Assembly (NCBI GenBank): GCA_963789535.1
Contig: CAWBKU010000002.1
Span: 9,046-73,045, forward strand
Origin: an uncultured Alphaproteobacteria bacterium
GTDB taxonomy: Bacteria > Pseudomonadota > Alphaproteobacteria > Rhodobacterales > Rhodobacteraceae
Direction of reading: 5' to 3'
DNA: 64,000 nt
A program made the translations under genes and the position numbers. Below the pieces are notes generated by a model. It was given only the letters and a program-made list of their open reading frames with translations, was not told where the DNA came from and did no database searches. Below are positions 8,001 through 49,916 of the stretch, one piece after another. Each line of letters opens with the position of its first letter. The stretch's first letter is position 1.

Positions 8001-8075
8001 GCCCGGGTAGCTCAGGGGTAGAGCAGTGGATTGAAAATCCTCGTGTCGGTGGTTCGATTCCGCCCCTGGGCACCA
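8001..8075 (+). tRNA. tRNA-Phe (GAA)
   Basis: Acceptor GCCCGGG/CCTGGGC, D-arm GCTC-AGGGGTA-GAGC, anticodon loop TTGAAAA, T-arm GGTGG-TTCGATT-CCGCC, encoded CCA. There is one U-U mismatch in the anticodon stem. Confidence 0.92.
8057..8072 (+). repeat. attL core (direct repeat)
   Basis: Identical 16-mer to 14871-14886. The match extends to 18 of 19 nt if the following [c/a]ca is included. Confidence 0.85.
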
Positions 8076-8078
8076 CTC

Positions 8079-9239
8079 CTATTTTTTATCGTTGCGTTTC
8101 AACGCGGTAGGGGTCGAAATTGTCCCACCGTCTGCCACGTCACCCGAAAGTGGGACACTTTTGTCCACGATTTGTCCCGCAGACATGCGCGCCAGAGCGG
8201 ACTCCGCGCCGGTTCTCTGACGTGCCGCACGGGTGTATCGCGTGACCTCTTTCGAGGTCCGGTGGCCCGTAATCGACATGATCTCATGTTCGGTGCAGCC
8301 CAGTTCGGCGAGCCGCGCCGCCGCTGCCTTGCGCAGACCGTGAACGGTGCATCCGGGCAGCTTCGCGTCGTCGCACCACTTGCGGAACCTGTTGCCGAAA
8401 CCGTTCGACGTGAAGGGGCGACCGAACTCGGTTTTCAGGAAGGCGAGGTCGCCCGTCGGTGTCGCGTCGATGATCCGTTGCATTTCGGGGATGACCGGAA
8501 TTTCGAGCCGGACGGGCTTGGTGTTGCGGCCCTTGGTCTGTGTGAAAGCCAGCCATCCGTCGCGCACATGCTGGCGACCGAACTGAACCAGATCGGCGCG
8601 GCGTTGCCCCGTATAGAGGGCGAGGGCGAGGGCCAGTCGCGCGGTAGTGCCGACAGGATGCGCGTTCTCGAATTGGTCAATCTCGGCAAGGGACCAGCTA
8701 TGGAAGCCCTCGGGATTGCCCTTCAGATACTCGACGCTGACAGCCGGGTTCACGTCATGCAGGTCATAGCGCAGGGCGAACTTGAATAGCTGGCGCAGCG
8801 CCTTGACCATACCGTTCGCCGCCTCGGGCCGGTCCATCATGTCGTCGCGCCGCGCACGGATATGCCGGGGCAGGAGCATGGCAAACGGTTTGTCGCCGTC
8901 GCCCTTGTTCTGGCAGACCCGCTCTAGGATTGCCCTGCGCACGGTCTGGGTGCGGGGGTCCATCTCCCTGAACATGGCCGACTTGTAGTATTCGACGCAA
9001 AGCCATTTCAGGCTGTGGGGCACCACACGCCCTGCCTTTGCGACAGACGCCTTGCGCGGGGTCTTGGGGTTCGCGGCGGCGCGGTAGTCGGTCAGGAACT
9101 CGGGCGAACCAGTCGGCCCCCTCAGTCGGACCTTGCGACCGTCGTGCCGGTAGTAGAGCCGCACGTTGCCGTGCCGGTCCACGTCCTCCACCACATACTT
9201 CAGGCGCATCTGCATGGCGTCCCCCACACGATCAGTCAT
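8079..9239 (-). CDS. int: tyrosine-type site-specific integrase
   Basis: Catalytic signature TGQRRADL ... HGLRKAAA ... GHRTSKEVTRYT. The stop lies 3 nt from the tRNA CCA. ATG 9239 overlaps the xis stop by 8 nt. Confidence 0.93.
   Translation of the reverse strand: MTDRVGDAMQMRLKYVVEDVDRHGNVRLYYRHDGRKVRLRGPTGSPEFLTDYRAAANPKTPRKASVAKAGRVVPHSLKWLCVEYYKSAMFREMDPRTQTVRRAILERVCQNKGDGDKPFAMLLPRHIRARRDDMMDRPEAANGMVKALRQLFKFALRYDLHDVNPAVSVEYLKGNPEGFHSWSLAEIDQFENAHPVGTTARLALALALYTGQRRADLVQFGRQHVRDGWLAFTQTKGRNTKPVRLEIPVIPEMQRIIDATPTGDLAFLKTEFGRPFTSNGFGNRFRKWCDDAKLPGCTVHGLRKAAAARLAELGCTEHEIMSITGHRTSKEVTRYTRAARQRTGAESALARMSAGQIVDKSVPLSGDVADGGTISTPTALKRNDKK
8117..8180. repeat. cluster of TTGTCCCAC / GTGGGACA motifs (candidate integrase/Xis arm-type sites), attL side
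   Basis: TTGTCCCAC at 8120-8128 and GTGGGACA at 8150-8157, plus degenerate copies ttgtccac (8161-8168) and ttgtcccgc (8172-8180). The same motifs recur at 14779-14786 and 14827-14835. Confidence 0.6.
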
Positions 9240-9480
9240 CGTAGGGATTGTGGTCTGACTCGTCGCCCCCCGGCAACAGGTCAAAAGAACGGTCCAGTGC
9301 CCGCACGTCCCAGACCCTGCGACCGTCTATTTTCTTGGGTCTAGGCATCCGCCCGTCACCCGTCATGGCATCGAATTTCGTCGGGCTGACGCCGATGTAT
9401 TCCGCCGACTCGACACGATTCAGCCCGCGCCGCGTTGGCGGGGGGACTGCATCGTGCCGAATCGGACGGGCATCGGTCAT
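9232..9480 (-). CDS. xis: excisionase / AlpA-like helix-turn-helix DNA-binding protein
   Basis: 82 aa. LNRVESAEYIGVSPTKFDAM...GRMPRPKKIDGRRVWDVRALD matches the excisionase-family HTH pattern. Lies directly upstream of int. Confidence 0.8.
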   Translation of the reverse strand: MTDARPIRHDAVPPPTRRGLNRVESAEYIGVSPTKFDAMTGDGRMPRPKKIDGRRVWDVRALDRSFDLLPGGDESDHNPYDD

Positions 9481-9484
9481 CGGC

Positions 9485-9808
9485 TCAGCCGTCCAGCCGG
9501 ACGTTGACGCTGGCGGACGGGTTGCCTGCCACAGTGACGGCGAGGCCAACGCGGGTGTTGCCGCTGGCGGTGGTCGTGACCAGTCCGTCGGATGCCCGGT
9601 GGTAGGCGATGGCCCCCACGGCGAAGGCGTCGGTTTCGACCTTGGGCAGATCGAACACGCCGACCGTGGACAGGACCAGAGGCTCGCCGATAGCGGCGTC
9701 CCCGAAGGCCACGCCGATCAGGTTGCCGACTTTCACCACGTCGCCAGAGGCGGCGATTGCGGCGGCGGTGAGGGTGATGCGTTCACCCGGCTGCACGTAG
9801 TTTTTCAT
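9485..9808 (-). CDS. DUF2190 family protein (phage head decoration-type)
   Basis: 107 aa, MKNYVQPGE.ITLTA......GDVV.VG.L.GVA..DAA.GE......VGVF.LPK family pattern. Confidence 0.8.
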   Translation of the reverse strand: MKNYVQPGERITLTAAAIAASGDVVKVGNLIGVAFGDAAIGEPLVLSTVGVFDLPKVETDAFAVGAIAYHRASDGLVTTTASGNTRVGLAVTVAGNPSASVNVRLDG

Positions 9809-9809
9809 C

Positions 9810-10028
9810 TCAGATTCCCTTCGATGTGTTGAGGTAGATGGTGTGGACCGGCTGACGGCTGGCCTTGGCGATTTCGGCCTCTAGAAAGCCAATGGCGCGG
9901 GCCATCTCGCCGTCGGTGCGGTAGGTTACGAGTTCGCCGCTCTGGTCCCTGAAGGTGAGGACACCACTGGCCCTGTTGAGGACCAGAGCATCGCGGGCAG
10001 CGACCAGAGCGGCGAGGGTGAGGGCCAT
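9810..10028 (-). CDS. gpW-like head-tail joining protein
   Basis: 72 aa. L.ALVAARDAL......G....F.D..G..V.Y......M...I.FLE.EI aligns by eye to lambda gpW ([46 protein letters not shown]). Confidence 0.7.
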   Translation of the reverse strand: MALTLAALVAARDALVLNRASGVLTFRDQSGELVTYRTDGEMARAIGFLEAEIAKASRQPVHTIYLNTSKGI

Positions 10029-10029
10029 A

Positions 10030-11859
10030 TCAGTCCCCCGGGTTCAGGTAGGCAGCGCGCCAGTCGAGCCAGCCCGCGCCGAAGTCGAGCCACGCGCGGA
10101 ACTTCAGGCCCAGCGTGTCCCACGCCTCTGCCCGCTGAATCTGGACGCCTTGGGCACTGGACAGGTAGCCGTATTGCAGCGCCGCGACACGGGCCGGGTC
10201 GGCGAAGATATACCAGCTTTCGTCTTCGATCCGGGGTTCCACCAGAAGGGTCAGCTTCGCCATCCCCGACTGAGCGTCGGCACTGGTGGCCGGGTATATC
10301 GAGGCGAGGAACCTCTCAGCCGCCGCCTCGCCAGCGGGACCGACCAGCAGATAGCGGGGGGTCACGTTGATGAGGGTCTTGCCGTCGAGTCCTTTGAAGC
10401 CCCGCATGGCCTTGCGGGCGTCGTCCAGTGCGGCGGTGTCGCCTGTGCTGCCCAGCGACACGCCGGACGCGATGGTGTTGCCCCGTGCCGTGCTAAAGAC
10501 GGGGTTGCCGTCGGACAGGTTCGGGTTGCCGGTGATGAGGTCCGTCATGATATCCCGCTCAGTGTCGGCAGCCGCCTCACCAAACGCCGCCGTCATGTCG
10601 CCCAGCAGGTTGAGGTCATCGTTGATGATGAGGTTGCGCGACACGGTGATGGCCCGGGCGTAGGTCTTCAGGACCAGCGACTCGCCGTTTTCCGCGCGGC
10701 TGGTGTGGGTGATTTCGCCAGACTCGGCGAGTTCTTCCAGACGGCCCATCTCGCCCAGACGGATTGCCGTGCTGGTCTTGAAGTTGCTCAGCGACCGTTG
10801 ACGGCCAAGTTGCTTCAGGGGCGACTGAGCGGCTTGATAAGAGGCCATCGCGGTCTTGTTCGCGGCGTTGGACACGACGAGGGCGAAGTCGCTGGTGGTA
10901 TGCTCGCCTGCACGGGTCAGCACTTCGTCATTGCTCATGCCGCGTGTCGAGATACCGGCGCGGCCCAGCGAGTCCTTCGCCACGTCCATGAGCGACATGG
11001 ACATGAACTGCCGAACCTCGGGGGCCGGGGTGCCGCCCGCCATGCGGACGTGCAGGGCGTCGGCCATGCGGTCACGGATGACAGCGGGGTCATCGTTCGC
11101 CGGGGTGTGGCTGCGGATGATCGGGGTCGTGCTGCGGCGGGTCGCCCCTACAAGGTGCGCGTCGGTAAGCTGGTCGAGTTCGTTCGCGGCGATGACAGCC
11201 GGGGCCACGCGCGACAGCCCGCGCACCTGACCCGCCGATTGCGCCTCAAAGACGTGGATCACGTCGGCGGCGTCAAACCGGACAGAGGGCGCATATTCGG
11301 TGAACTCGGCAGTCGGGCGCTGGGGAAGAATCCAGTAGGCGACAATCTTGCCACCGATGAACTCCACGCCGTTCACGATTTCATGGTGGGAGGCGATGAA
11401 GGCGGTCTTGGACTCGTCCAGATGCTCGGGCGGCAGAACCTGAATCCACAATTCGCCGTCGTCGCCGACGTGCAGGATTGCCAGTCCCTCGCCGTCGCGG
11501 ACCATGTGCAGGGCGAGGATGCGTTGCAGACCGTAGAAGTCGGTGCGACCGTCATAGTCGGCGGCGGTGGTCCACGACTCGAAACGCCGCATGACCTCTT
11601 CGTCGGCGACGTTCGGGCGGATGCCCGTGCCGGTCATGGACGTGACGAGATTATCTAGGGCATTTCGGATCAGCCCGTTATTCACATAGAGGCTGCGGGA
11701 ACGGCTGCGCACAATCGGCCCAGCCGCCGCAATTTCAGAATTGACCGGCCCGAACGTCCCTTGACCTTTGCCACGCCGCTGCCTGCCCGCTGCGTCAATA
11801 GAGCGAACGTGCGGGGCCGGGTCGGCGCGGCGAAAGAATTTGGGGAACGGGAAGGCCAT
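10030..11859 (-). CDS. chimeric ORF: lambda-family portal N-terminal half fused in frame to a complete phage major-capsid domain
   Basis: Residues about 50-250 align by eye to lambda gpB (RS.SLYVNNG.IRNA.DN.V....GTGIRP; VIHVFEAQSAGQVRG..). Residues about 285-609 carry the capsid pattern SLMDVAKDSL...RGMS..EV..RA..HTTSDF....N.ANK, ITVSRNLIINDDL..LGDM, WYIFADP, LKFRAWLDFG. The portal C-terminal half, protease and scaffold are absent. Confidence 0.7.
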   Translation of the reverse strand: MAFPFPKFFRRADPAPHVRSIDAAGRQRRGKGQGTFGPVNSEIAAAGPIVRSRSRSLYVNNGLIRNALDNLVTSMTGTGIRPNVADEEVMRRFESWTTAADYDGRTDFYGLQRILALHMVRDGEGLAILHVGDDGELWIQVLPPEHLDESKTAFIASHHEIVNGVEFIGGKIVAYWILPQRPTAEFTEYAPSVRFDAADVIHVFEAQSAGQVRGLSRVAPAVIAANELDQLTDAHLVGATRRSTTPIIRSHTPANDDPAVIRDRMADALHVRMAGGTPAPEVRQFMSMSLMDVAKDSLGRAGISTRGMSNDEVLTRAGEHTTSDFALVVSNAANKTAMASYQAAQSPLKQLGRQRSLSNFKTSTAIRLGEMGRLEELAESGEITHTSRAENGESLVLKTYARAITVSRNLIINDDLNLLGDMTAAFGEAAADTERDIMTDLITGNPNLSDGNPVFSTARGNTIASGVSLGSTGDTAALDDARKAMRGFKGLDGKTLINVTPRYLLVGPAGEAAAERFLASIYPATSADAQSGMAKLTLLVEPRIEDESWYIFADPARVAALQYGYLSSAQGVQIQRAEAWDTLGLKFRAWLDFGAGWLDWRAAYLNPGD

Positions 11860-11861
11860 AG

Positions 11862-12467
11862 TTAGTTTGCGGCGTTGCGAGCGGCACGGCGGCTCGGGTG
11901 AACGCGGTCCAGAATGTCGGTCATCGGGACAGACAGGACAGCCCGCGCCTCATACTGAGGGCCGGGGTGCGTGACATTTGTGCCCTCTGCCGTCGGACGC
12001 GACATGAAGCGGCCTTGAAACAGTTTCTCGCCGGTGGGGGTGGCAAAGAGCCAAAGGTCAAACACCCAATCGCGCGATCCGCCCTCATATTCGCGGATGA
12101 CGTGCTGCCCCGGCGTGATTGCGGGGTATTTGTTGTCGGGGGCATCCCCGTCGCGCCAGAAGTTGAACGCCATCGCGACGGCTTGGGCAGCGCCGTTGCC
12201 TGAAATGCCGAATTGATTCAGCCGCACCAGAACTTCTGCCACCAGAATTTCACCGGGCAGAAAGAGAAAAGCCCGCTTGCCCTCAGTCTCTTGGGCGATG
12301 GGGGTCAGTTGGCCTTGCCGCATATACCAGCGCAGCCGGTCAGTGACCGCCTTCTTGTCTTCGCCGGGATAGGCGACAGCATCGGCGAGGTCGCCGATAG
12401 TCAGAAGGTCGCCCGGGTTCTTTCGGACCTGCTTGGGGATCATCGCCCCGCCATAAATCTTCGCCAT
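11862..12467 (-). CDS. hypothetical protein with MerR/TerS-like N-terminal HTH motif; first gene of the leftward operon
   Basis: Start chosen at ATG 12467: GGAGAGG lies 8 nt upstream, and hand-counted GC3 rises from about 48% upstream to about 76% downstream. The N-terminus LLTIGDLADAV.....K.VTDRLRWYMRQGQL.P is HTH-like. Confidence 0.6.
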   Translation of the reverse strand: MAKIYGGAMIPKQVRKNPGDLLTIGDLADAVAYPGEDKKAVTDRLRWYMRQGQLTPIAQETEGKRAFLFLPGEILVAEVLVRLNQFGISGNGAAQAVAMAFNFWRDGDAPDNKYPAITPGQHVIREYEGGSRDWVFDLWLFATPTGEKLFQGRFMSRPTAEGTNVTHPGPQYEARAVLSVPMTDILDRVHPSRRAARNAAN

Positions 12468-12498
12468 TTGTCGCACCTCTCCATTGTCAGGATAGGGC

Positions 12499-12533
12499 GA
12501 CTCATATGCCGGATTGCCCGCATATGTCGAGTC
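12499..12533. promoter_or_regulatory. imperfect inverted repeat in the divergent intergenic region (candidate operator)
   Basis: gactcatatgc (12499-12509), a 10-nt spacer, then gcatatg-tc-gagtc (12520-12533). Lies 32-66 nt upstream of the 12467 start. Confidence 0.35.
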
Positions 12534-12737
12534 GAAAACCAATTGTAAACCGTAGGTTAGCAATGCCATGAGACTTGACCAAGGCGGGCCACCCGGTGTA
12601 GTGAGTCGTTGTTGGCCGCTCGTTGTAGTGATCGTCGGTTGGCTCCTGTCCGGGTTTGGTTGGCCCGGAACTGGCGGCGGGGGTTTGTCCATGTCCCCCG
12701 CCGCTTTCTTTCCCCTGAACTCGAAAGGACCAAGCCC

Positions 12738-12974
12738 ATGCGACAGTTTACCAAAGGACACGACAAGGCCCTCGGGCTTGCCCGAGTGGCGATGCACGTC
12801 AATTCGATAGAGGGGTGCAGTCTGCAATCGTGGCGGAACGACGTGCAGCTTATATGCAAGATGTGCAACGTCTCCGCGCCCGACGACTATCTGGCATGGG
12901 TGACGGGCGGCGACATGAAGGACGCCGACATTGCGGACCGGTCGCGGGCGTTCGGGATGCAAAGAGTCCGCTAA
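12738..12974 (+). CDS. small hypothetical protein (78 aa), divergent from the head-gene operon
   Basis: ATG 12738 with AAAGGA 8 nt upstream. Hand-counted GC3 is about 78%, which favours coding on this strand. Has three Cys and one His (H20, C27, C41, C44) but no recognisable family. Confidence 0.45.
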   Translation: MRQFTKGHDKALGLARVAMHVNSIEGCSLQSWRNDVQLICKMCNVSAPDDYLAWVTGGDMKDADIADRSRAFGMQRVR

Positions 12975-13080
12975 ACCGACTGCTGACTAATAGTCTACCA
13001 GCAACAATCGAAGCTGCGCGGCAACGCTCAGAAGTCTGACGCGCCTCAACGGGAAATAGTCGCTAGTTGGACAGCTTAAA

Positions 13081-14100
13081 TCAAACCTTCCGGGTAATTG
13101 ACATCTCCAGCACCAATTTACTTCCCAAAGCAGTCAAGCTCAGAAATTCAGAGTAGCTGCCAGCAGTTGTCTTGGAAACATGGCTCGACACCAGCCCTAA
13201 GGCGATAAGTTGGTTCTTGATGCGAATAATAAAAAAGTCCGAAATTTTCGAAGGTTCTTTAAATGACCCAGTATCAGCTGCAAGAGCACGCAGGCCATAC
13301 AAGATACAGTAGGATGGTGGGCGAGCCAGATCAAGCTGGGATGCAACTGCAAAAAATATTTGCTTCCAACTCAAATCGACGGAACGCTCGTATTCAGAAG
13401 TCCTTCCTTGGTTTGTCTGTTTAAATTTATACTCAATTGAAAAAATGTCCTCAAGGCCAGCAATATTATCAAATTTAGGCGCCATCGCCGCTTCAGCGCG
13501 CGCTAGTTTTTGCTCTGCTGAACTGAGAAGTTCCCTAAGTTCTTTGTTCTTTGTCATTTCGTCATTCAAGCGATTTACTGCCTCTTCGCTAGCGGCAGTA
13601 TTGGCACGAATCCAACCCACTTGCGGATGGTCGTTCAAAGCATGCATCAATGATTTGAGAAGAGTGCTTTCAAGGTCCTGCCGCGTCTTCCATGTCTTTA
13701 CTAGACGGCCCGTCACTACTTTTCTTCTAAATTCATCGAGAGCATTTGCCGCCTTGGTCTCGACCTCACTCTTACCAATAGAGATTTCCTCAGGGTTAGA
13801 GTGCACAAATGCTAAGACAATTTTATTTGTCTCTATTGCGTATTCATATTCCTTTTCTGTGAAGCTTATACCCTCTGAGTCCACTGAGCCGTATCGACCC
13901 CCGATGATAAGCACGTAATAGTCGCACTCATCAATGACCTTTTTAATATATGAGAATTGCTCTGTATCCGATGCGGGAAATAACTCCATTCCGGCAGGAA
14001 TGTGGTTAAGATCTAGGATGCTACGAATCGCATCAGCGCGCTCGTCTTTAAGGTCTGTGAAGGTTGAAGAGACAAATACTTGGAATTTCTTGACGCTCAT
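13081..14100 (-). CDS. DUF4062 (TIR / nucleoside-2-deoxyribosyltransferase-like) domain protein with coiled coil and an unassigned C-terminal domain; low-GC foreign cassette
   Basis: 340 aa from ATG 14100 (GAAGGTG 8 nt upstream). N-terminus is KFQVFVSSTFTDLKDER..MELFPA..DECDYYVLIIGGRYGS..SFTEKEYEYA..NKIVLAFV. A heptad-like stretch covers residues about 170-205. Hand-counted G+C is 32-50% per 60-nt line against about 68-70% in the flanks. Confidence 0.8.
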   Translation of the reverse strand: MSVKKFQVFVSSTFTDLKDERADAIRSILDLNHIPAGMELFPASDTEQFSYIKKVIDECDYYVLIIGGRYGSVDSEGISFTEKEYEYAIETNKIVLAFVHSNPEEISIGKSEVETKAANALDEFRRKVVTGRLVKTWKTRQDLESTLLKSLMHALNDHPQVGWIRANTAASEEAVNRLNDEMTKNKELRELLSSAEQKLARAEAAMAPKFDNIAGLEDIFSIEYKFKQTNQGRTSEYERSVDLSWKQIFFAVASQLDLARPPSYCILYGLRALAADTGSFKEPSKISDFFIIRIKNQLIALGLVSSHVSKTTAGSYSEFLSLTALGSKLVLEMSITRKV

Positions 14101-14123
14101 ACAACCCGCACCTTCTGAAATTG

Positions 14124-14654
14124 TTAGTGTCCGTCTAGCCATGCGCTTCGGATCACGCTAGCGGATTTTTTTGGCATGCCCCCCAGCGCCCCGTTGAGGC
14201 GCGCCAGAAGGGCAGTCCGTTGTTCGGGGGAGTGGGCTTTGCTCAAAGGGCAGAAGACGCGCCAGCGCCGCCCCTTCCCGGGCTTACCGTCGCTAGGTGT
14301 CGTGTAGATCAGGGCGGTGATACCGGCCTTCTCGACAAGCCCCACGGCCTCCACGGGGGCCACGTCCCCTGCGTCATAATCGACCTCAACGCCCGTGATG
14401 CTCAAGACATTGGAGTCATAGCGCAGGCAGTTCTTATCGGACGGCACGTCGCCGAACGTCGCGCCCTTCAAGAAGGGCAGCAGGTCCTTGGACGGGGCGA
14501 TGCGCTTTTCGATCCCAGCGGCGAGGCGGCGCAGGCTCAGCGTCTTCTCAGCCTTGGTCTTGGCATATTGGTCGGGGAAGAGCGTGACCGTCATGGGGGC
14601 GTCCAGAGGGTCTTGATCGGGGGCCGGATTGGGGGTATTCAGATACCGCGACAT
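14124..14654 (-). pseudogene. 5' fragment of an island/phage replication (primase-like, VirE-N/AEP-type) gene, truncated at the low-GC cassette junction
   Basis: 176 aa from ATG 14654 (AAAGGA upstream). The pattern PFLKGATFGD....R.D.NV..ITG.E.DYD ... YTTPS......RWRV..PLS resembles N-terminal domains of primase-helicase proteins that are normally several hundred aa long. The reading frame ends within about 40 nt after composition switches to AT-rich. Confidence 0.45.
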
Positions 14655-14778
14655 AGTGTTGTCCTTTCGCATGTCGTTTTCAGGGATTGGCTTTGGGGCC
14701 GGTTCAATCTTCCAGACCCCCGGCAGGCTCGCTCACCTGCCGGGGTTTCTGTTTTTCGGGGGATAAGGGTCTGTTTCG

Positions 14779-14835
14779 GTGGGACAAAAATTCCCGAAAA
14801 ACCTAATGAAACTATGGGAAGAACGATTGTCCCAC
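14779..14835. repeat. GTGGGACA / TTGTCCCAC motif pair (candidate arm-type sites), attR side
   Basis: GTGGGACA at 14779-14786 and TTGTCCCAC at 14827-14835. The extended match cgaaa(a)gtgggaca is shared with 8145-8157. Confidence 0.55.
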
Positions 14836-14870
14836 TTTTCGCTAAGCCACAGGAATCAAAGGCTTAATGT

Positions 14871-14886
14871 ATTCCGCCCCTGGGCA
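14871..14886 (+). repeat. attR core (direct repeat of the tRNA-Phe 3' end)
   Basis: attccgcccctgggca, identical to 8057-8072. Confidence 0.85.
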
Positions 14887-15073
14887 ACATTTACCGCGTC
14901 GAGATCGGGACGTGTCGGAGATGCGCGCGGAGCCGACTGCGTCGTCCCTCGTGCCCGTCCCGGAGGACAGGAAGTGAAGTGGATCGTTGCAGCCTGTCCG
15001 CTGAAAAATGACGGGCTCCGACGGTGATGGGCCACATTGCCTCTTTACAGCGTAACCGTCCGGGCTGACTGCT

Positions 15074-16573
15074 CTACTTCGGCCGGTTCCACGGCAGCAG
15101 GTCGTCCACGCGGGTGATCTTGTAGTCGGGGATGCGGGCGAGGGTATCGGCGAGCCAAGCCTGCGGATCGACACCGTTGAGCTTGGCGGTCTCGATGAGG
15201 GTATAGGCGATGGCAGCGGCGCGGCCGCCGGTGAGCGAGCCGACGAAGAGGTAGTTCTTCCGACCGATCGCGACGGAGCGCATCGCACGTTCGGCCGTGT
15301 TGTTGTCCAGCTCCAGGACCCCACAATCGAGATAGGGCCGGAGCCGCTTCATGCGGGTCAGGGCGTAGCGGATCGCCACGGCCAGCGGCGACTTGCCGGA
15401 GATGGATGGCAGCTGGAGGTGCAGCCAGGCCTCGAGGTCGTCGAAGATCGACACCGCCTTGGCCTGCCGGATCTCGACGCGCCTATCCGGGGGCGAGGCT
15501 CTCACCTCCTTCTCGACGCCGTAGAGTTGGGCGATGCGCGCGATGGCCTCCTCGGCGATGGCCGAGCCCTGGACCCGATGAACGTCGACGAACTTGCGCC
15601 TGACATGGGCCATGCAGGCGACCTCGCGGATGTCGCCGGACCGGTAGATGTCCTCGAACCCGGCGTAACCGTCGGCATGCATCCAGCCGCGGTAGTCGGC
15701 GAGATGGTCCTTCGGATGCTGACCCTTCCGATCCGGCGAGAACCGATACCAGCTGGCGGGCGGTGCGGCACCGCCCCAGGGTCGCTCATCTCGCGCATAG
15801 GCCCAGAGCCGTGCCGTGGCCGTCTTGCCGGTGCCGGGTGCCAGCATCCGGACGGGCGTGTCGTCCGCGAAGATCGCCTGTCCGGCCAAGACGTGCCGGC
15901 CGATGGCGTCCGCCAGCGGCTCGAGTAGCGCGGTGCTCTTCCCCACCCAGTCCGCCAGCGTCGAACGGTCGATGTCGAGCCCATCACGCTCGAAGATCTG
16001 GCTCTGGCGGTAGAGCGGCAGATGATCGGCGTATTTGTTGACCAGAACGTGGGCGAGCAGGCCAGGACCGGGGCGTCCACGCTCAATGGGGCGGGATGGC
16101 AGGGACGCCTGGGTGAAAGCTTCGCAGCCGGAACACGCGAAGCGCGGTCGCACGATGCGGTTCACGATGAACCGCCCGGGCACATACTCGAGTTCCTCGG
16201 TCACGTCCTCGCCCAAGCGACGCAGCACGCCGCCGCACTGGGCGCAGTCATCGTCGCCGGTGGTGAGTTCGACTTCCATCCGCGGAATGTGATCCGGGAT
16301 CGGGCGGCGCTTCGGCTTGTCCTTGGGCTCCTCGTCGGGAAGCCGCAGCTTCGCCGTCATCTTCGCGATCGAGATCTCGGTCGCCTCGAGCGCCAGCTGA
16401 AGCTGCTCGATGGTCTCCGACGAGGTGCCGAACCGGGAGTTGCGGTGACCGGCAAGCTGATGCTGGAGCTTCATGATCAGCATCGCCTGCGACTTAACCT
16501 CGGCCAGAAGCAGGGCCGTGAAGTGACGTAGTTCGTCGGGATCTTCCGGCAGGGATCGGGCGGTGTAGAGCAT
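15074..16573 (-). CDS. tnpC: IS66 family transposase TnpC
   Basis: 499 aa from MLYTARSLPED. Contains a leucine-zipper region, the zinc-finger C.QCGG...C..C, and the LPLYRQ and DDT....L DDE region. Confidence 0.93.
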   Translation of the reverse strand: MLYTARSLPEDPDELRHFTALLLAEVKSQAMLIMKLQHQLAGHRNSRFGTSSETIEQLQLALEATEISIAKMTAKLRLPDEEPKDKPKRRPIPDHIPRMEVELTTGDDDCAQCGGVLRRLGEDVTEELEYVPGRFIVNRIVRPRFACSGCEAFTQASLPSRPIERGRPGPGLLAHVLVNKYADHLPLYRQSQIFERDGLDIDRSTLADWVGKSTALLEPLADAIGRHVLAGQAIFADDTPVRMLAPGTGKTATARLWAYARDERPWGGAAPPASWYRFSPDRKGQHPKDHLADYRGWMHADGYAGFEDIYRSGDIREVACMAHVRRKFVDVHRVQGSAIAEEAIARIAQLYGVEKEVRASPPDRRVEIRQAKAVSIFDDLEAWLHLQLPSISGKSPLAVAIRYALTRMKRLRPYLDCGVLELDNNTAERAMRSVAIGRKNYLFVGSLTGGRAAAIAYTLIETAKLNGVDPQAWLADTLARIPDYKITRVDDLLPWNRPK

Positions 16574-16632
16574 GCCAGAACATAGCAAATTATGAGCCTG
16601 ACGGGAATCCTCGATGCGCGCGCCTTGCCAGA

Positions 16633-16980
16633 TTATCCCGCTCTGAGCGGCTTCCAGCTGCGCTGCGGCTGTCGCCAGTCGATGCCCTCCAGGAGCATCG
16701 CCAACTGCGCCGCCGTCAGAGAGATCTTGCCCTCCTTCGCCGACGGCCAGACGAACCGGCCCGTCTCCAGGCGCTTGGAGAACAGGCATGCGCCCTGGCC
16801 GTCCCACCAGATGATCTTGACCAGATCGCCGCGCCGCCCCCGGAAGACGAACATGTGGCCCACGAACGGATCCAGCTTCAGCGTCTCCTCCGCCTGCGCG
16901 GCCAGCGTCGTGAACCCGCGCCGCATGTCGGTCACCCCCGCCGCCAGCCAGACCCGCGTGTTCGACGGAACGGGGATCAT
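16633..16980 (-). CDS. tnpB: IS66 Orf2 family protein TnpB
   Basis: 115 aa, [23 protein letters not shown]...... typical TnpB. Its ATG overlaps the tnpA stop (ATGA). Confidence 0.92.
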
Positions 16981-17357
16981 CCCGACAGACCCCGGATCAG
17001 CCGGGCCAGCGCCTCGGGGTCGTAAGTCCCGACGATCCGCAGCCGATGGCCGCCCGCGACGTCGATCTCGATCGTGCCAGGCGCAGGCGTCGGATCGGAC
17101 ACTGACGCCAGATCTTCGCTTTGTGGCTGATTGACGATCTGAACCGGCAGGAAGCCATGCGGCTCGACCGCGGGCTCGTCGGCTACAGTGCCGACAGCGG
17201 CAAATCGTGCATCGCGCAGCCACGTGAAAACCAAGTTCGCATTGACGTCGTAGCGCCGCGCGACCTGGCTGACCGACACGCCCGCCACCCGCGTCTGCTC
17301 GCAGATCGCCCGCTTCTCGTCGTCGCTCCAGATCCTGCGCTTGCGCCGCTTCGACAC
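16977..17357 (-). CDS. tnpA: IS66 Orf1 (transposase TnpA, HTH)
   Basis: 126 aa, RR.WSDDEKR.I..Q....G.SVS.VARRY.VNANL.F.W. Confidence 0.9.
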
Positions 17358-24217: not shown

Positions 24218-24291
24218 TGGAGCGGGTAACGGGAATTGAACCCGTAACTAAAGCTTGGGAAGCTGCCGTGATACCTTTTCACCATACCCGC
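24218..24291 (-). tRNA. tRNA-Gly (CCC)
   Basis: Reverse complement is GCGGGTA TG GTGA AAAGGTA TCAC G GCAGC TTCCCAA GCTTT AGTT ACGGG TTCAATT CCCGT TACCCGC T CCA. The acceptor and T stems pair perfectly, the discriminator is U, and there is one C-U mismatch in the anticodon stem. Confidence 0.8.
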
Positions 24292-33821: not shown

Positions 33822-34160
33822 CGCATTGCGAAGAGGGAAAGTGCAGGCTTCTGTTGCCAGGTGCCTGCGAACCCCGCCTTACGCTGCTAGGCGCAAGGAC
33901 TTAGGTTTCGGCAACTCGGACTGCTTACGCAGCCAGAGCCATAGCCGGAGCACGGTTGTTATTGGCAACTGTACAATTCGGACCGATAACGGTGGTACCT
34001 CACCGAGACAAAGACATCCCCTTTAGACGTTCGTCGATCCTGTTTCGACCCCATCGGCCCCCAATAAGGGTGTTTGGTGGAGTCGCCGGGTACCGCCCCC
34101 GGGTCCGATCCGCGTATTACGAGCGCGTTTATGTCCATAGTCCCGAAGGACAGGATCAAC
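33795..34160 (-). ncRNA. ssrA: tmRNA (ssrA), circularly permuted two-piece alphaproteobacterial type; outer ends approximate
   Basis: Minus strand. The acceptor piece ends ..GGAC-CCGGG-GGCGGTA-CCCGG-C-GACTCC-ACCA (CCA at 34075-34077). After a 22-nt spacer, the coding piece starts GGGGUCGAAACAGGAUCGACG (5' end at 34052). G3-U pairing with CGACUCC gives the Ala identity pair. The tag ORF at 33925-33966 encodes ANNNRAPAMALAA-stop. Confidence 0.88.
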
Positions 34161-34211
34161 ATAGGCGCTGAGGCGACATCCGGCAAGGGGTTCACCGAAC
34201 CGCCGGGCGGC

Positions 34212-49826: not shown

Positions 49827-49916
49827 GGAGCGGTGGCCGAGTGGTCGAAGGCGCACGCCTGGAAAGTGTGTAGGCGGGAGACCGTCTCCAGGGTTCGAAT
49901 CCCTGTCGCTCCGCCA
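49827..49916 (+). tRNA. tRNA-Ser (GGA)
   Basis: 90 nt with acceptor GGAGCGG/TCGCTCC, anticodon loop CTGGAAA, a long variable arm, T-arm CAGGG-TTCGAAT-CCCTG, and G + CCA. Confidence 0.9.

Follow-up and report, generated by a model that had tools for sequence, protein, structure and literature searches.

The window, the 64-kb stretch of DNA analyzed here, carries a compositionally foreign gene whose product, judged by its sequence, is a DUF4062 protein of the Swarozyc lineage, an assignment founded on family membership, domain homology, and the conservation of the catalytic residue and of residues validated in relatives. By analogy with those relatives, we consider it probable, at roughly three chances in four, that the protein is a single-protein abortive-infection NADase of this lineage carried as satellite cargo, with NADase activity, an abortive outcome, and a portal trigger read across from characterized members. 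A first-pass annotation of the same DNA had already proposed an abortive-infection NADase, and we keep this as the best reading.

A low-GC gene stands out from the window

Base composition singles out positions 13081-14100 as the lowest-GC kilobase of the window (44.3% G+C vs 66.6% for the whole window). The minimum among all 1,020-nt windows falls exactly at 13081 (z = -8.9; mean 0.67, sd 0.026), and outside the low-GC region every such window has at least 0.596 G+C. The block from 12975 to 14165 has 45.5% G+C compared with 63% in the remaining island, and a 100-nt GC profile places its edges at about 13000 and at about 14150-14175. The compositionally foreign block of about 1.1-1.2 kb described in the first-pass annotation is thus borne out; it is the only strong compositional anomaly of the 64 kb, which is explained by an immune gene retained in a dead satellite.

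The ORF in this block is real, although it lies on the minus strand and encodes 339 aa plus a stop rather than the 340 aa given originally (Table 1). That the block holds exactly one ORF is correct for supported genes, but not for the mechanical list, which shows ORFs of 51-157 aa in other frames of the block. An in-frame ATG at 14142 is an unlikely start, because the N termini of the homologues read M-x-x-KK[YF]Q[VI]FVSS.

Table 1. Coordinates of the DUF4062 gene, its predicted parts, and the element that carries it.
Feature	Position	Strand	Remarks
tRNA-Phe	8001..8075	+	3' end, 8057-8075, is attL
Tyrosine integrase	8079..9284	-	PF00589; 75% identical to the integrase of the relative satellite L017
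AlpA-like regulator/excisionase	9232..9549	-	phrog_25900, phrog_66
Capsid cement/decoration protein	9485..9808	-	PF09956
Head-tail adaptor Ad1	9810..10028	-	phrog_2545
Portal(1-~240)::capsid fusion ORF	10030..11859	-	Pfam Phage_portal_2 (partial) and Phage_capsid_4
Pre-portal ORF, conserved in the satellite family, ~200 aa	11862..12467	-	residues 173-363 match the L112 and L115 pre-portal ORFs at 42-43%
Inverted repeat, left arm, 19 nt	13035..13053		TCTGACGCGCCTCAACGGG; brackets the cassette; also present in L001
Swarozyc-family gene (Swz)	13081..14100	-	ATG 14100..14098, stop 13083..13081; predicted DUF4062 TIR-like NADase domain, helical stalk, presumed AUX sensor domain
AUX domain, residues 207-339, presumed trigger sensor	13084..13482	-	beta-hairpin 219-244, then winged helix-turn-helix
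Helical stalk, residues 172-206	13483..13587	-	single long helix in the AF2 model; aligns with the KpSwz stalk
TIR-like DUF4062 catalytic core, residues 4-165	13606..14091	-	AF2 model: beta-alpha repeat with five parallel strands; Foldseek matches
Codon of Glu84, predicted catalytic residue	13849..13851	-	equivalent to KpSwz E97 and Eva01 E87; codon verified
Shine-Dalgarno-like AGAAGGTG	14109..14116	-	8 nt upstream of the ATG; direct reading of the sequence
Truncated primase-helicase gene, 182 aa	14124..14672	-	residues 12-172 of a 782-aa D5_N/DUF5906 protein; tblastn vs the L017 primase
Inverted repeat, right arm	14190..14208		18/19 complementary; inside the retained primase coding sequence (LLARLNG)
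attR	14871..14889	+	18/19 direct repeat of the tRNA-Phe 3' end

The protein is a predicted TIR-like effector of the Swarozyc family

A Pfam check on the N-terminal region upheld the DUF4062 signature recognized in the first-pass annotation: PF13271 aligns with residues 7-88 over profile positions 1-82 of 82 and scores 103.6 bits against a gathering cut-off of 24.7 (E=6.7e-30). All of the motifs that had been quoted (KFQVFVSSTFTDLKDER, MELFPA, DECDYYVLIIGGRYGS, and SFTEKEYEYA) are present, and phrog_15411 matches over the full length of the protein (E=2e-87). The AF2 model (mean pLDDT 84.6, AUX 95-98) predicts a TIR-like core, a 35-residue helix that corresponds to the heptad-like segment noted earlier, a hairpin, and a winged helix-turn-helix (wHTH).

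The closest characterized protein is the founding member of Swarozyc, KpSwz of Klebsiella pneumoniae (Osinski et al., bioRxiv 10.64898/2026.05.01.722283; PDB 10wc, 11cq, and 11cv). It matches at E=4.4e-59 over residues 4-255 in a search with the single sequence and at E=1.8e-86 over 300 positions (of 326 chain residues) with a profile of 49 homologues; pairwise identity is 40% over 254 aa. Stand-alone proteins with a DUF4062 domain, a stalk, and an AUX domain have been described as Swarozyc (10.64898/2026.05.01.722283) and also within the Evangelion family (10.64898/2026.06.25.731849), so the earlier statement that this protein is not one of the named defence systems, and with it the claim of an undescribed system, is outdated by two 2026 preprints. 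Neither PADLOC-DB 2.0 nor NCBIfam contains a model for the family, the only matches being coiled-coil JetC at 0.012 and MiaB at 0.042, and this absence is no evidence of novelty because both libraries predate the preprints.

The predicted catalytic glutamate is the second Glu of TEKE-Y (E84), which aligns with the substituted Ala in the E97A chain of PDB 10wc and is invariant across the 49 homologues; the Glu of MELF (E39) is also invariant. The window protein keeps every residue on which the other 48 aligned homologues agree without exception, including E84, F9, and W163. In Eva01, a member of the Evangelion family, the equivalent residues F11, E87, and W162 are essential for defence (10.64898/2026.06.25.731849, Ibarra-Chavez et al.).

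The earlier proposal of a fold resembling TIR and nucleoside-deoxyribosyltransferase (NDT) modules was checked with the predicted structure and Foldseek and holds: the core matches TIR domains (4c6t, SPARTA, and TIR-STING) and NDT-like N-glycosidases (4jen and DNPH1). The PDB library, which ends on 2026-04-08 and is without the KpSwz entries, yielded TIR, NDT, and PadR folds only. The resemblance to NDT-type enzymes such as BcmB and DNPH1 brings in the idea of a nucleotide-metabolism enzyme, a nucleoside 2-deoxyribosyltransferase or N-glycosidase that serves salvage or the modification of phage DNA precursors instead of an immune NADase, and the best viral structural match is indeed annotated "Deoxyribosyltransferase". 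We regard this as extremely unlikely: that annotation is automatic, the patchy, horizontally transferred, low-GC distribution is unlike that of a housekeeping enzyme, and two independent studies of DUF4062 proteins, including KpSwz, measured NAD+ depletion or NADase activity that was phage-triggered and led to abortive infection (10.64898/2026.05.01.722283; 10.64898/2026.06.25.731849).

The C-terminal domain, for which the first-pass annotation could name no motif and suggested a sensor, does have a name, being homologous to the AUX winged-helix domain of KpSwz: a profile built from AUX only finds KpSwz residues 205-303 at E=6e-10 and thereafter only PadR-type wHTH proteins, and the Foldseek matches of the domain are PadR (TM 0.5-0.56). 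The sensor-like character fits its rapid evolution, since variability within the protein peaks in AUX, with a column identity in the family of 48-54% compared with means of 82% for the core and 51% for the stalk. Among satellites whose TerL and portal proteins are 93-96% identical, AUX is merely 62-77% identical. In an exhaustive search with AUX only, all 54 matches were C termini of proteins of at most 341 aa or fragments, and there is therefore no sign of the AUX sensor being paired with other effectors.

The gene is carried by a decayed satellite at a tRNA-Phe gene

As the first-pass annotation had it, the gene lies in a phage-derived element at tRNA-Phe, and att sites and element genes bear this out. 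The positions of attL and attR delimit an element of 6.8 kb (8057-14889). Read from its gene content, the element appears to be a decayed capsid-forming-PICI-like (cfPICI-like) satellite. No relative turned up when genome contigs were scanned with the 182-aa primase fragment, and related islands were located through IMG/VR instead. The cfPICI definition that we used comprises an integrase, an AlpA-type regulator, a primase-replicase, terL, portal, protease/capsid, and adaptor genes, no tail or holin genes, and a size of about 10-15 kb (PMC10085698). Three related satellites (L017, L018, and L019) are intact at 12-13 kb, with integrase, AlpA, primase, terL, portal, protease-capsid, adaptor, and decoration genes and no room for tail genes; the window copy is without terL, most of the primase, the portal C terminus, and the protease, and terS and a connector were not identified.

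The window satellite has thus decayed, having lost the C terminus of the primase-helicase, terS/terL, the C terminus of the portal, and the protease, while the Swz ORF is intact. The fusion ORF matches residues 43-244 of 460 of the L017 portal and residues 179-581 of 587 of its protease-capsid protein, and results from the loss of about 1.2 kb, in which the portal C terminus and the prohead protease went missing. The pre-portal ORF had been called as 366 aa, an over-extension; in the metagenome contig L001, which is 99.3% identical, the call is 201 aa. At the other side of the gene, the upstream edge of the cassette does meet the point where a truncated primase-like ORF (14124-14672) ends, as had been noted, and the D5_N and DUF5906 domains are found by Pfam in the primase of the intact relative. 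The explanation given at the time, that insertion of the cassette as a moron truncated the primase, is rejected: intact satellites carry Swz in the same slot after terL, and the window element has lost about 5 kb from primase residue ~172 up to the ribosome-binding site of Swz.

Decay of the carrier raises the question of whether Swz is itself an inactive relic of a dead satellite, non-expressed or non-functional and with no present role in this strain. The carrier is without replication and packaging genes, no promoter-like site was found upstream of Swz in a scan for sigma-70 promoters, the gene is disrupted by +1/-1 indels and a stop in the near-identical contig L001, and its low GC content could draw xenogeneic silencing. 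However, the ORF is full length with a good ribosome-binding site and keeps all of the family-invariant residues listed above, the promoter scan covered sigma-70 consensus sites only, and the integrase and Ad1 genes of L001 are also frameshifted, so that an assembly error looks likely there. On this evidence we consider a relic very unlikely.

The two arms of the 19-nt inverted repeat are its only copies in the 64 kb, even with three mismatches allowed (expected 0.09), and none of ten other loci has a comparable repeat flanking Swz. We considered and rejected the cassette as a mobile unit with its own terminal inverted repeats, the right arm being native primase coding sequence. A metagenome scan with the left flank and arm, aimed at an inverted state, matched no contig and so carries no weight either way.

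Swz occupies a variable slot between terL and the portal gene

A Swz homologue sits at this position, between terL and the portal gene, in intact relatives such as the satellite of Salipiger aestuarii DSM 22011 (L017). Four of about 35 related satellites have it (L017, L018, L019, and L057); in the first three, the gene lies 3-9 nt after terL and is co-oriented with the packaging operon, and the L057 copy is encoded on the other strand. In other satellites the slot holds PARIS AriAB (E=5e-144), a PIN_12/PDC-S34 protein, a TIR/NDT-like effector, a CoiA-like nuclease, and several occupants without a known domain. Swz is therefore cargo of a low-GC slot, hypervariable in content, that separates terL from portal, and its setting, here a satellite cargo slot common to PARIS and other defence genes, is one of defence islands and mobile elements.

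The position inside a packaging operon, co-oriented and beside the satellite's own portal gene, could also suit a satellite weapon against the head assembly of helpers or competitors, or an addiction toxin that stabilizes the island, with host protection incidental. Genes for abortive infection and interference are known satellite cargo (PMC10085698), and Swz has stayed intact while the rest of the window island decayed. The small share of satellites with Swz, the unrelated cargo in the slot elsewhere, and the reversed copy in L057 speak against such a role, as do the homologues, which lie mostly outside satellites, and the lack of a conserved antitoxin-like partner adjoining Swz; satellite portals, moreover, are 94-96% identical with or without Swz. 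We therefore consider a satellite weapon or addiction role unlikely. A related and similarly improbable idea concerns a suicide NADase that is triggered by portals and encoded in a head-morphogenesis operon. Because the satellite builds its own portal and capsid, such an enzyme would have to tell the satellite portal from those of helpers and competitors; sparing its own, it would be a portal-discriminating weapon, and the 19-nt repeat could make the gene invertible and hence phase-variable. The basis of both ideas is the gene position and the repeat.

Homologues are widespread and mobile

The homologues number more than 3,700, come from at least 556 species genomes, and include a large alphaproteobacterial clade of proteins of about 330-335 aa, mostly seen just once. 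The GC content of the Swz gene is below that of its flanks in 96% of the 80 genomes checked. IMG/VR has homologues on 126 viral contigs; among the cultured phage genomes of INPHARED, the sole match is from an Acinetobacter phage and is 24% identical, and carriage by phages therefore runs through prophages and satellites, not through known isolated phages.

The neighbourhoods are mixed. The R. leguminosarum copy adjoins SIR2-HerA, NTase-conflict, and KAP NTPase genes, and an Agrobacterium homologue lies inside an int-AlpA-capsid element, while of the seven close homologues sampled, four stand alone among housekeeping genes, which we counted against the main reading. In a crude comparison of PADLOC neighbours, 40 families were hit near the gene (<3 kb) and 11 far from it (>6.5 kb), yet these correspond to roughly 15 and 13 genes, so that counting genes shows no clear enrichment, and the far matches are mostly to generic ATPase models.

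Proposed mechanism and trigger

The mechanism that we favour is modeled on KpSwz. The resting protein would be an autoinhibited oligomer, held through its TIR-like heads and helical stalks. During infection a newly made phage structure, which for KpSwz is the dodecameric portal (10.64898/2026.05.01.722283), would bind the beta-hairpin and winged helix of AUX; the stalks would realign, the heads would become active, and depletion of NAD+ would halt the infected cell ahead of the release of phage progeny.

In KpSwz, W238/Y239 at the tip of the hairpin (TVGWYDE) anchor the protein to the portal; the tip reads QTNQGRT in the window protein, and the last ~35 residues do not align with KpSwz, so the trigger may differ. 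The same DUF4062 NADase effector could respond to another virion protein, or to phage replication or recombination intermediates as proposed for Eva01, whose escapers map to RecA/UvsX-like genes and which binds recombination-like DNA (10.64898/2026.06.25.731849); the rapid evolution of AUX and its PadR-like wHTH, a common nucleic-acid-binding fold, fit with this. Nevertheless, AUX is homologous to that of KpSwz and not to the Eva01 C terminus, and loss of the W-Y pair is compatible with portal binding because the AUX-portal contacts of KpSwz are flexible and heterogeneous interfaces (10.64898/2026.05.01.722283). The W238/Y239 pair is a specificity determinant of one member, not a stated criterion of the Swarozyc family. 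A different trigger is accordingly possible but, in our judgment, doubtful, and a KpSwz-like, portal-triggered NADase remains the reading that we prefer.

Comparison with known systems

With the TIR NADase effectors (Thoeris ThsB/ThsA, SPARTA TIR-APAZ, TIR-STING, and SARM1), the window protein shares the flavodoxin-like TIR fold and the catalytic Glu and, by analogy, would share NAD+ depletion as output and activation through rearrangement of an oligomer. It differs from them in that sequence similarity exists at the fold level only and in that it would act without a separate signalling molecule or partner; the KpSwz dimer, in addition, uses an AB interface where SARM1 uses AE.

Eva01 is closer. 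Its DUF4062 core is 36% identical over 170 aa (pairwise with the S. aureus Eva01-type protein WP_000072391.1), F11, E87-Y88, and W162 correspond to F9, E84-Y85, and W163, and Eva01 likewise consists of one gene on a mobile element, acts by abortive infection, and needs its C-terminal auxiliary region. In contrast, Eva01 is plasmid-borne in Firmicutes (S. aureus pMW2-type plasmids), its proposed trigger is associated with replication or recombination, and the Eva01-type protein aligns with residues 5-170 and has no detectable similarity past residue ~170, for which reason the window protein is placed with Swarozyc and not with Eva01.

As for the carrier, its integrase-AlpA-primase backbone at a tRNA gene is that of P4-like satellites, PICIs, and cfPICIs, and the family has its own terL, portal, protease-capsid, adaptor, and decoration genes without tail or lysis genes, as in cfPICIs (PMC10085698). 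One slot with variable low-GC cargo, PARIS included, resembles the defence hotspots of P4-like satellites and PICIs, but the hosts here are Alphaproteobacteria and the window copy is defective (6.8 kb). We found no description of a terL-portal hotspot position in the phage-satellite papers that we consulted. In cfPICI-like satellites of Alphaproteobacteria, the interval from terL to portal is maintained as an exchangeable site for defence genes, one in which further cargo can be sought.

KpSwz is the nearest parallel: a single gene of about 330 aa with the same order of parts, from the DUF4062 TIR-like head through the helical stalk to AUX (beta-hairpin and winged helix), and with the catalytic Glu and the Trp at the base of the stalk conserved (W163, equivalent to KpSwz W176). 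Besides the AUX differences described above, the window protein has an alphaproteobacterium as host and a satellite as carrier, and its stalk exceeds that of most close homologues by 7 residues. Taken together, these comparisons reveal no new mechanism; the protein is a member of an already described defence family, and the recent Swarozyc/DUF4062 family now extends to a large alphaproteobacterial clade.

The low-GC block encodes one DUF4062 protein with homologues

The first-pass annotation had described the block at 12975-14165 as compositionally foreign, and comparison with the whole window bears this out: G+C is 44.3% in the Swz gene (the DUF4062 ORF), 63% in the remainder of the element that carries it, and 66.6% in the window. 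Of all windows of 1,020 nt in the 64 kb, the one with the lowest GC begins exactly at 13081 (z = -8.9), and away from the cassette region every such window had at least 59.6% G+C; the block is far from chance. The claim that it holds one ORF stands for ORFs with homologues, which the Swz gene alone has, but short mechanical ORFs exist in the other frames. AGAAGGTG sits 8 nt 5' of the Swz ATG, and every motif string quoted in the annotation was found in the product. Elsewhere in the window, a permuted (two-piece) tmRNA together with 67% GC fits an alphaproteobacterial host.

Coordinates of the features in the window and of cargo genes in related satellites
Feature	Location	Strand	Detail
tRNA-Phe	8001-8075
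Portal::capsid fusion	10030-11859	minus	609 aa
Intermediate-GC stretch	12468-13080		~600 nt, pre-portal ORF to Swz stop
ORF without homologue in related islands	12609-12974	plus	121 aa, or 78 aa from internal Met
Inverted repeat, left arm	13035-13053		27 nt past Swz stop codon
Swz gene	13081-14100	minus	ATG 14100, stop 13081-13083, 339 aa
Inverted repeat, right arm	14190-14208		89 nt upstream of Swz ATG
IS66-family element	15074-17357	minus	TnpA-like, TnpB, DDE transposase
tRNA-Gly(CCC)	24218-24291
Permuted tmRNA	33834-34168		tag ANNNRAPAMALAA
tRNA-Ser(GGA)	49827-49916
Swz in sister satellite	L057:5859-6851		opposite to packaging genes
Fused PARIS AriAB	L116:4831-6450		E = 4.9e-144
PIN_12 protein	L114:4641-5699		matches PADLOC candidate PDC-S34
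NDT/TIR-like effector	L109:9366-10211
CoiA-like nuclease	L115:6761-7564
Slot proteins without known domain (examples)	L106:6717-7601, L108:1442-2254, L100:5889-6632

Homology places the protein in the Swarozyc family

Pfam matched the window protein to DUF4062 (E = 6.7e-30) and PHROGs matched it over its full length to phrog_15411, of unknown function (E = 2e-87); PADLOC-DB 2.0 and NCBIfam gave no family match. An AlphaFold2 model built on A1, an alignment of the protein with 48 homologues, had a pLDDT of 84.6 (95-98 for residues 210-339) and comprised a five-stranded beta-alpha head, one long helix at 172-206, then a beta-hairpin at 219-244, and finally a winged helix. Foldseek, using a PDB library older than the KpSwz entries, returned TIR domains, NDT-type N-glycosidases, and PadR proteins. 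The annotation had read a DUF4062 N-terminus with a TIR-like fold from sequence motifs; Pfam supports the domain and Foldseek the fold. An enzyme of nucleotide metabolism is a weaker reading of the protein; the NDT-type matches speak for it, and the NADase activity reported for DUF4062 proteins speaks against it.

DUF4062 has been described as a TIR-like NADase, and Swarozyc as a defence system of stand-alone bacterial proteins combining DUF4062, a helical stalk, and an AUX (auxiliary) winged-helix domain; in KpSwz, the founding Klebsiella pneumoniae protein, E97 is catalytic and abortive infection results (Osinski et al., bioRxiv 10.64898/2026.05.01.722283). Compared with the KpSwz sequences in the PDB set (10wc, 11cq, and 11cv), the window protein matched over residues 4-255 in a single-sequence search (E = 4.4e-59), with 40% pairwise identity across 254 aa, and the A1 profile covered 300 of the 326 chain residues (E = 1.8e-86). 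The alanine of the E97A construct aligned with Glu84. A profile restricted to the C-terminal 133 residues matched KpSwz 205-303 (E = 6e-10) and after KpSwz reached just PadR-type winged-helix regulators (E ~0.2). Because this AUX-only profile finds KpSwz, the C-terminal domain that the annotation could not name is identified as the Swarozyc AUX. By homology, then, the window protein is a Swarozyc family member. Column identity across the family is 82% in the head and 48-54% in the stalk, hairpin, and winged helix, a contrast that would be expected of a fixed effector and an evolving sensor.

More than 3,700 matches were found among 5.8 billion proteins. The best were full-length (327-340 aa, 45-57% identity), came from Rhizobium, Shinella, Agrobacterium, Sphingomonas, and roseobacters, and were nearly all singletons labelled just "DUF4062 domain-containing protein". 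Relatives are encoded by at least 556 species-representative genomes of many phyla; in 80 such genomes (L176-L255) the GC of the homologue averaged 11.7 points below the 10-kb flanks (extreme -29) and was below them in 96%. The family seems to be AT-rich regardless of host.

The neighbourhoods of seven close homologues were mixed. One was the same island on a metagenome contig (L001); one, in R. leguminosarum (L009:1-9511, GCA_052138695.1), had SIR2_2 with DUF87 (HerA-like), NTase-conflict, and KAP NTPase genes directly upstream, in a defence island adjoining phage head genes; one, in Agrobacterium, lay inside an int-AlpA-capsid element; and four were solitary, flanked by housekeeping genes. 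When the PADLOC matches of neighbours within 3 kb were roughly compared with those of genes more than 6.5 kb away, no clear enrichment emerged. For bacterial DUF4062 genes, ~20% are reported in defence islands and more than half with a defence neighbour (10.64898/2026.05.01.722283).

The carrier is a putative decayed satellite at tRNA-Phe

Since the last 19 nt of the tRNA-Phe recur at 14871-14889 (18/19 identical), we delimited the element as 8057-14889 (6.8 kb). In ascending order, all on the minus strand, its genes are integrase, AlpA-like regulator, cement protein, Ad1 adaptor, portal::capsid fusion, a ~200-aa pre-portal ORF, Swz, and a 182-aa primase fragment. The IS66-family element lies outside, ~185 nt beyond attR, an arrangement identical in L001.

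Scanning IMG/VR with A1 yielded 126 viral contigs with homologues, four of which (L017, L018, L019, and L057) were related to the window element by local tblastn, with identities of 75% (integrase), 64-68% (cement), and 56% (capsid). L017, the same locus as L183 in Salipiger aestuarii DSM 22011, is intact and encodes, in order, a D5_N/DUF5906 primase-helicase (782 aa), two small ORFs, a gpA-type TerL (631 aa), a Swz homologue (331 aa, 45% GC), a 172-aa ORF, a lambda-family portal (460 aa), an S78 protease-capsid fusion (587 aa), an adaptor, a cement protein, an AlpA-like regulator, and an integrase. Its architecture, 12-13 kb without tail or lysis genes, is that of capsid-forming PICIs (PMC10085698), and the intact relatives appear to be capsid-forming-PICI-like satellites.

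Relative to L017, the window keeps only residues 12-172 of the primase, 43-244 of the portal, and 179-581 of the protease-capsid protein, and terL is absent throughout the 64 kb; judged by gene content, the element is a decayed satellite. In its 609-aa ORF, the first ~240 residues of a lambda-family portal are joined directly to the capsid protein. Compared with intact relatives, ~1.2 kb is missing, covering the C-terminal part of the portal and the S78 protease, and the same fusion is present in L001. By alignment, the primase truncation marks one edge of a ~5 kb deletion that reaches to just upstream of the Swz RBS. Insertion of the cassette did not cause the truncation; the annotation's view of a moron in a phage-derived island therefore holds for the location, a defence-cargo hotspot of a satellite, but not for the loss of the primase.

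A 19-nt inverted repeat (arms 18/19 complementary) brackets the low-GC cassette exactly. These are the only 2 copies in the 64 kb with three mismatches permitted (0.09 expected), and both also occur in L001. The right arm is part of the native coding sequence of the primase (LLARLNG in the window, LLARVNG in L017). No comparable repeat was found beside Swz at other loci, and a search of metagenomes for the other junction returned 0 contigs with the locus. The repeat may be a rearrangement scar, or it may render the segment invertible (an inverton).

The metagenome copy (L001:3446-4353, ENA ERZ25039505 contig_6766) is 99.3% identical, with Swz disrupted by a GAG-to-TAA change as well as by one +1 and one -1 indel, and integrase and Ad1 likewise frameshifted. 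Either assembly error or genuine decay in a sister strain could account for these lesions. The weaker possibility that the window gene is an inactive relic is favoured by this copy and by the decayed carrier; the full-length ORF and the conserved residues of its 339-aa product speak against it.

The terL-portal interval is a defence-cargo slot

A second IMG/VR scan, with a TerL query (A2), gave ~35 related contigs of 10-14 kb (L097-L137). Every one of them has 1.1-2.7 kb of low-GC sequence between terL and portal, made up of a conserved pre-portal ORF and a hypervariable part. Swz is present in only 4 of the ~35, and the remaining occupants are mostly singletons. In L057 (the contig is also L128) Swz lies in the same slot on the opposite strand, and was therefore acquired independently or inverted. 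When the ten largest occupants were annotated by Pfam/PADLOC, they included the PARIS, PIN_12, NDT/TIR-like, and CoiA-like proteins listed in the table, one of each; two were DUF-bearing, and four had no Pfam family, one of these being a marginal PADLOC match. Cargo differs between satellites whose TerL and portal are 92-96% identical, and AUX is just 62-77% identical between satellites sharing Swz. The Swz gene occupies a defence-cargo hotspot. A role in serving the satellite itself, favoured by the position among packaging genes, is a weaker alternative, against which stand the few satellites with Swz and the unrelated cargo in this slot elsewhere.

Proposed function and comparison with Swarozyc and Evangelion

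Alignment shows all three parts of the window protein to be homologous to Swarozyc, with catalytic and validated residues conserved, and we put the probability that it acts in Swarozyc-type abortive infection, the family-level function, at about 75%. The protein would rest as an autoinhibited oligomer; a phage assembly, by homology the portal, would bind AUX and activate the TIR-like heads, and Glu84-dependent NAD+ hydrolysis would then kill or arrest the infected cell. The portal as trigger is a tentative assignment, somewhat less likely than not. The main rival keeps the same effector and gives it a different trigger. In its favour, the portal anchor at the KpSwz hairpin tip (W238/Y239) is QTNQGRT in the window protein, whose last ~35 residues are unaligned to KpSwz; the match of the C-terminal profile to the KpSwz AUX counts against it.

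The annotation's functional guess appears essentially right, but two preprints of 2026, on Swarozyc and on Evangelion, have overtaken its proposal of an undescribed defence module. The analysis adds the anatomy of the satellite and its cargo slot between terL and portal; the Swarozyc kind itself was already known. Evangelion (Eva01) was described independently from S. aureus plasmids; it requires F11, E87, W162, and its AUX region, infection lowers NAD+, escapers map to RecA/UvsX-like genes, and satellites are among the carriers listed (Ibarra-Chavez et al., 10.64898/2026.06.25.731849). At the positions of Eva01 F11, E87-Y88, and W162, the window protein has F9, E84-Y85, and W163. The alignment with an Eva01-type protein encoded on a pMW2-like plasmid covers residues 5-170 only (36% identity); because it stops at residue 170, whereas AUX matches KpSwz, we file the window protein with Swarozyc rather than with Eva01.
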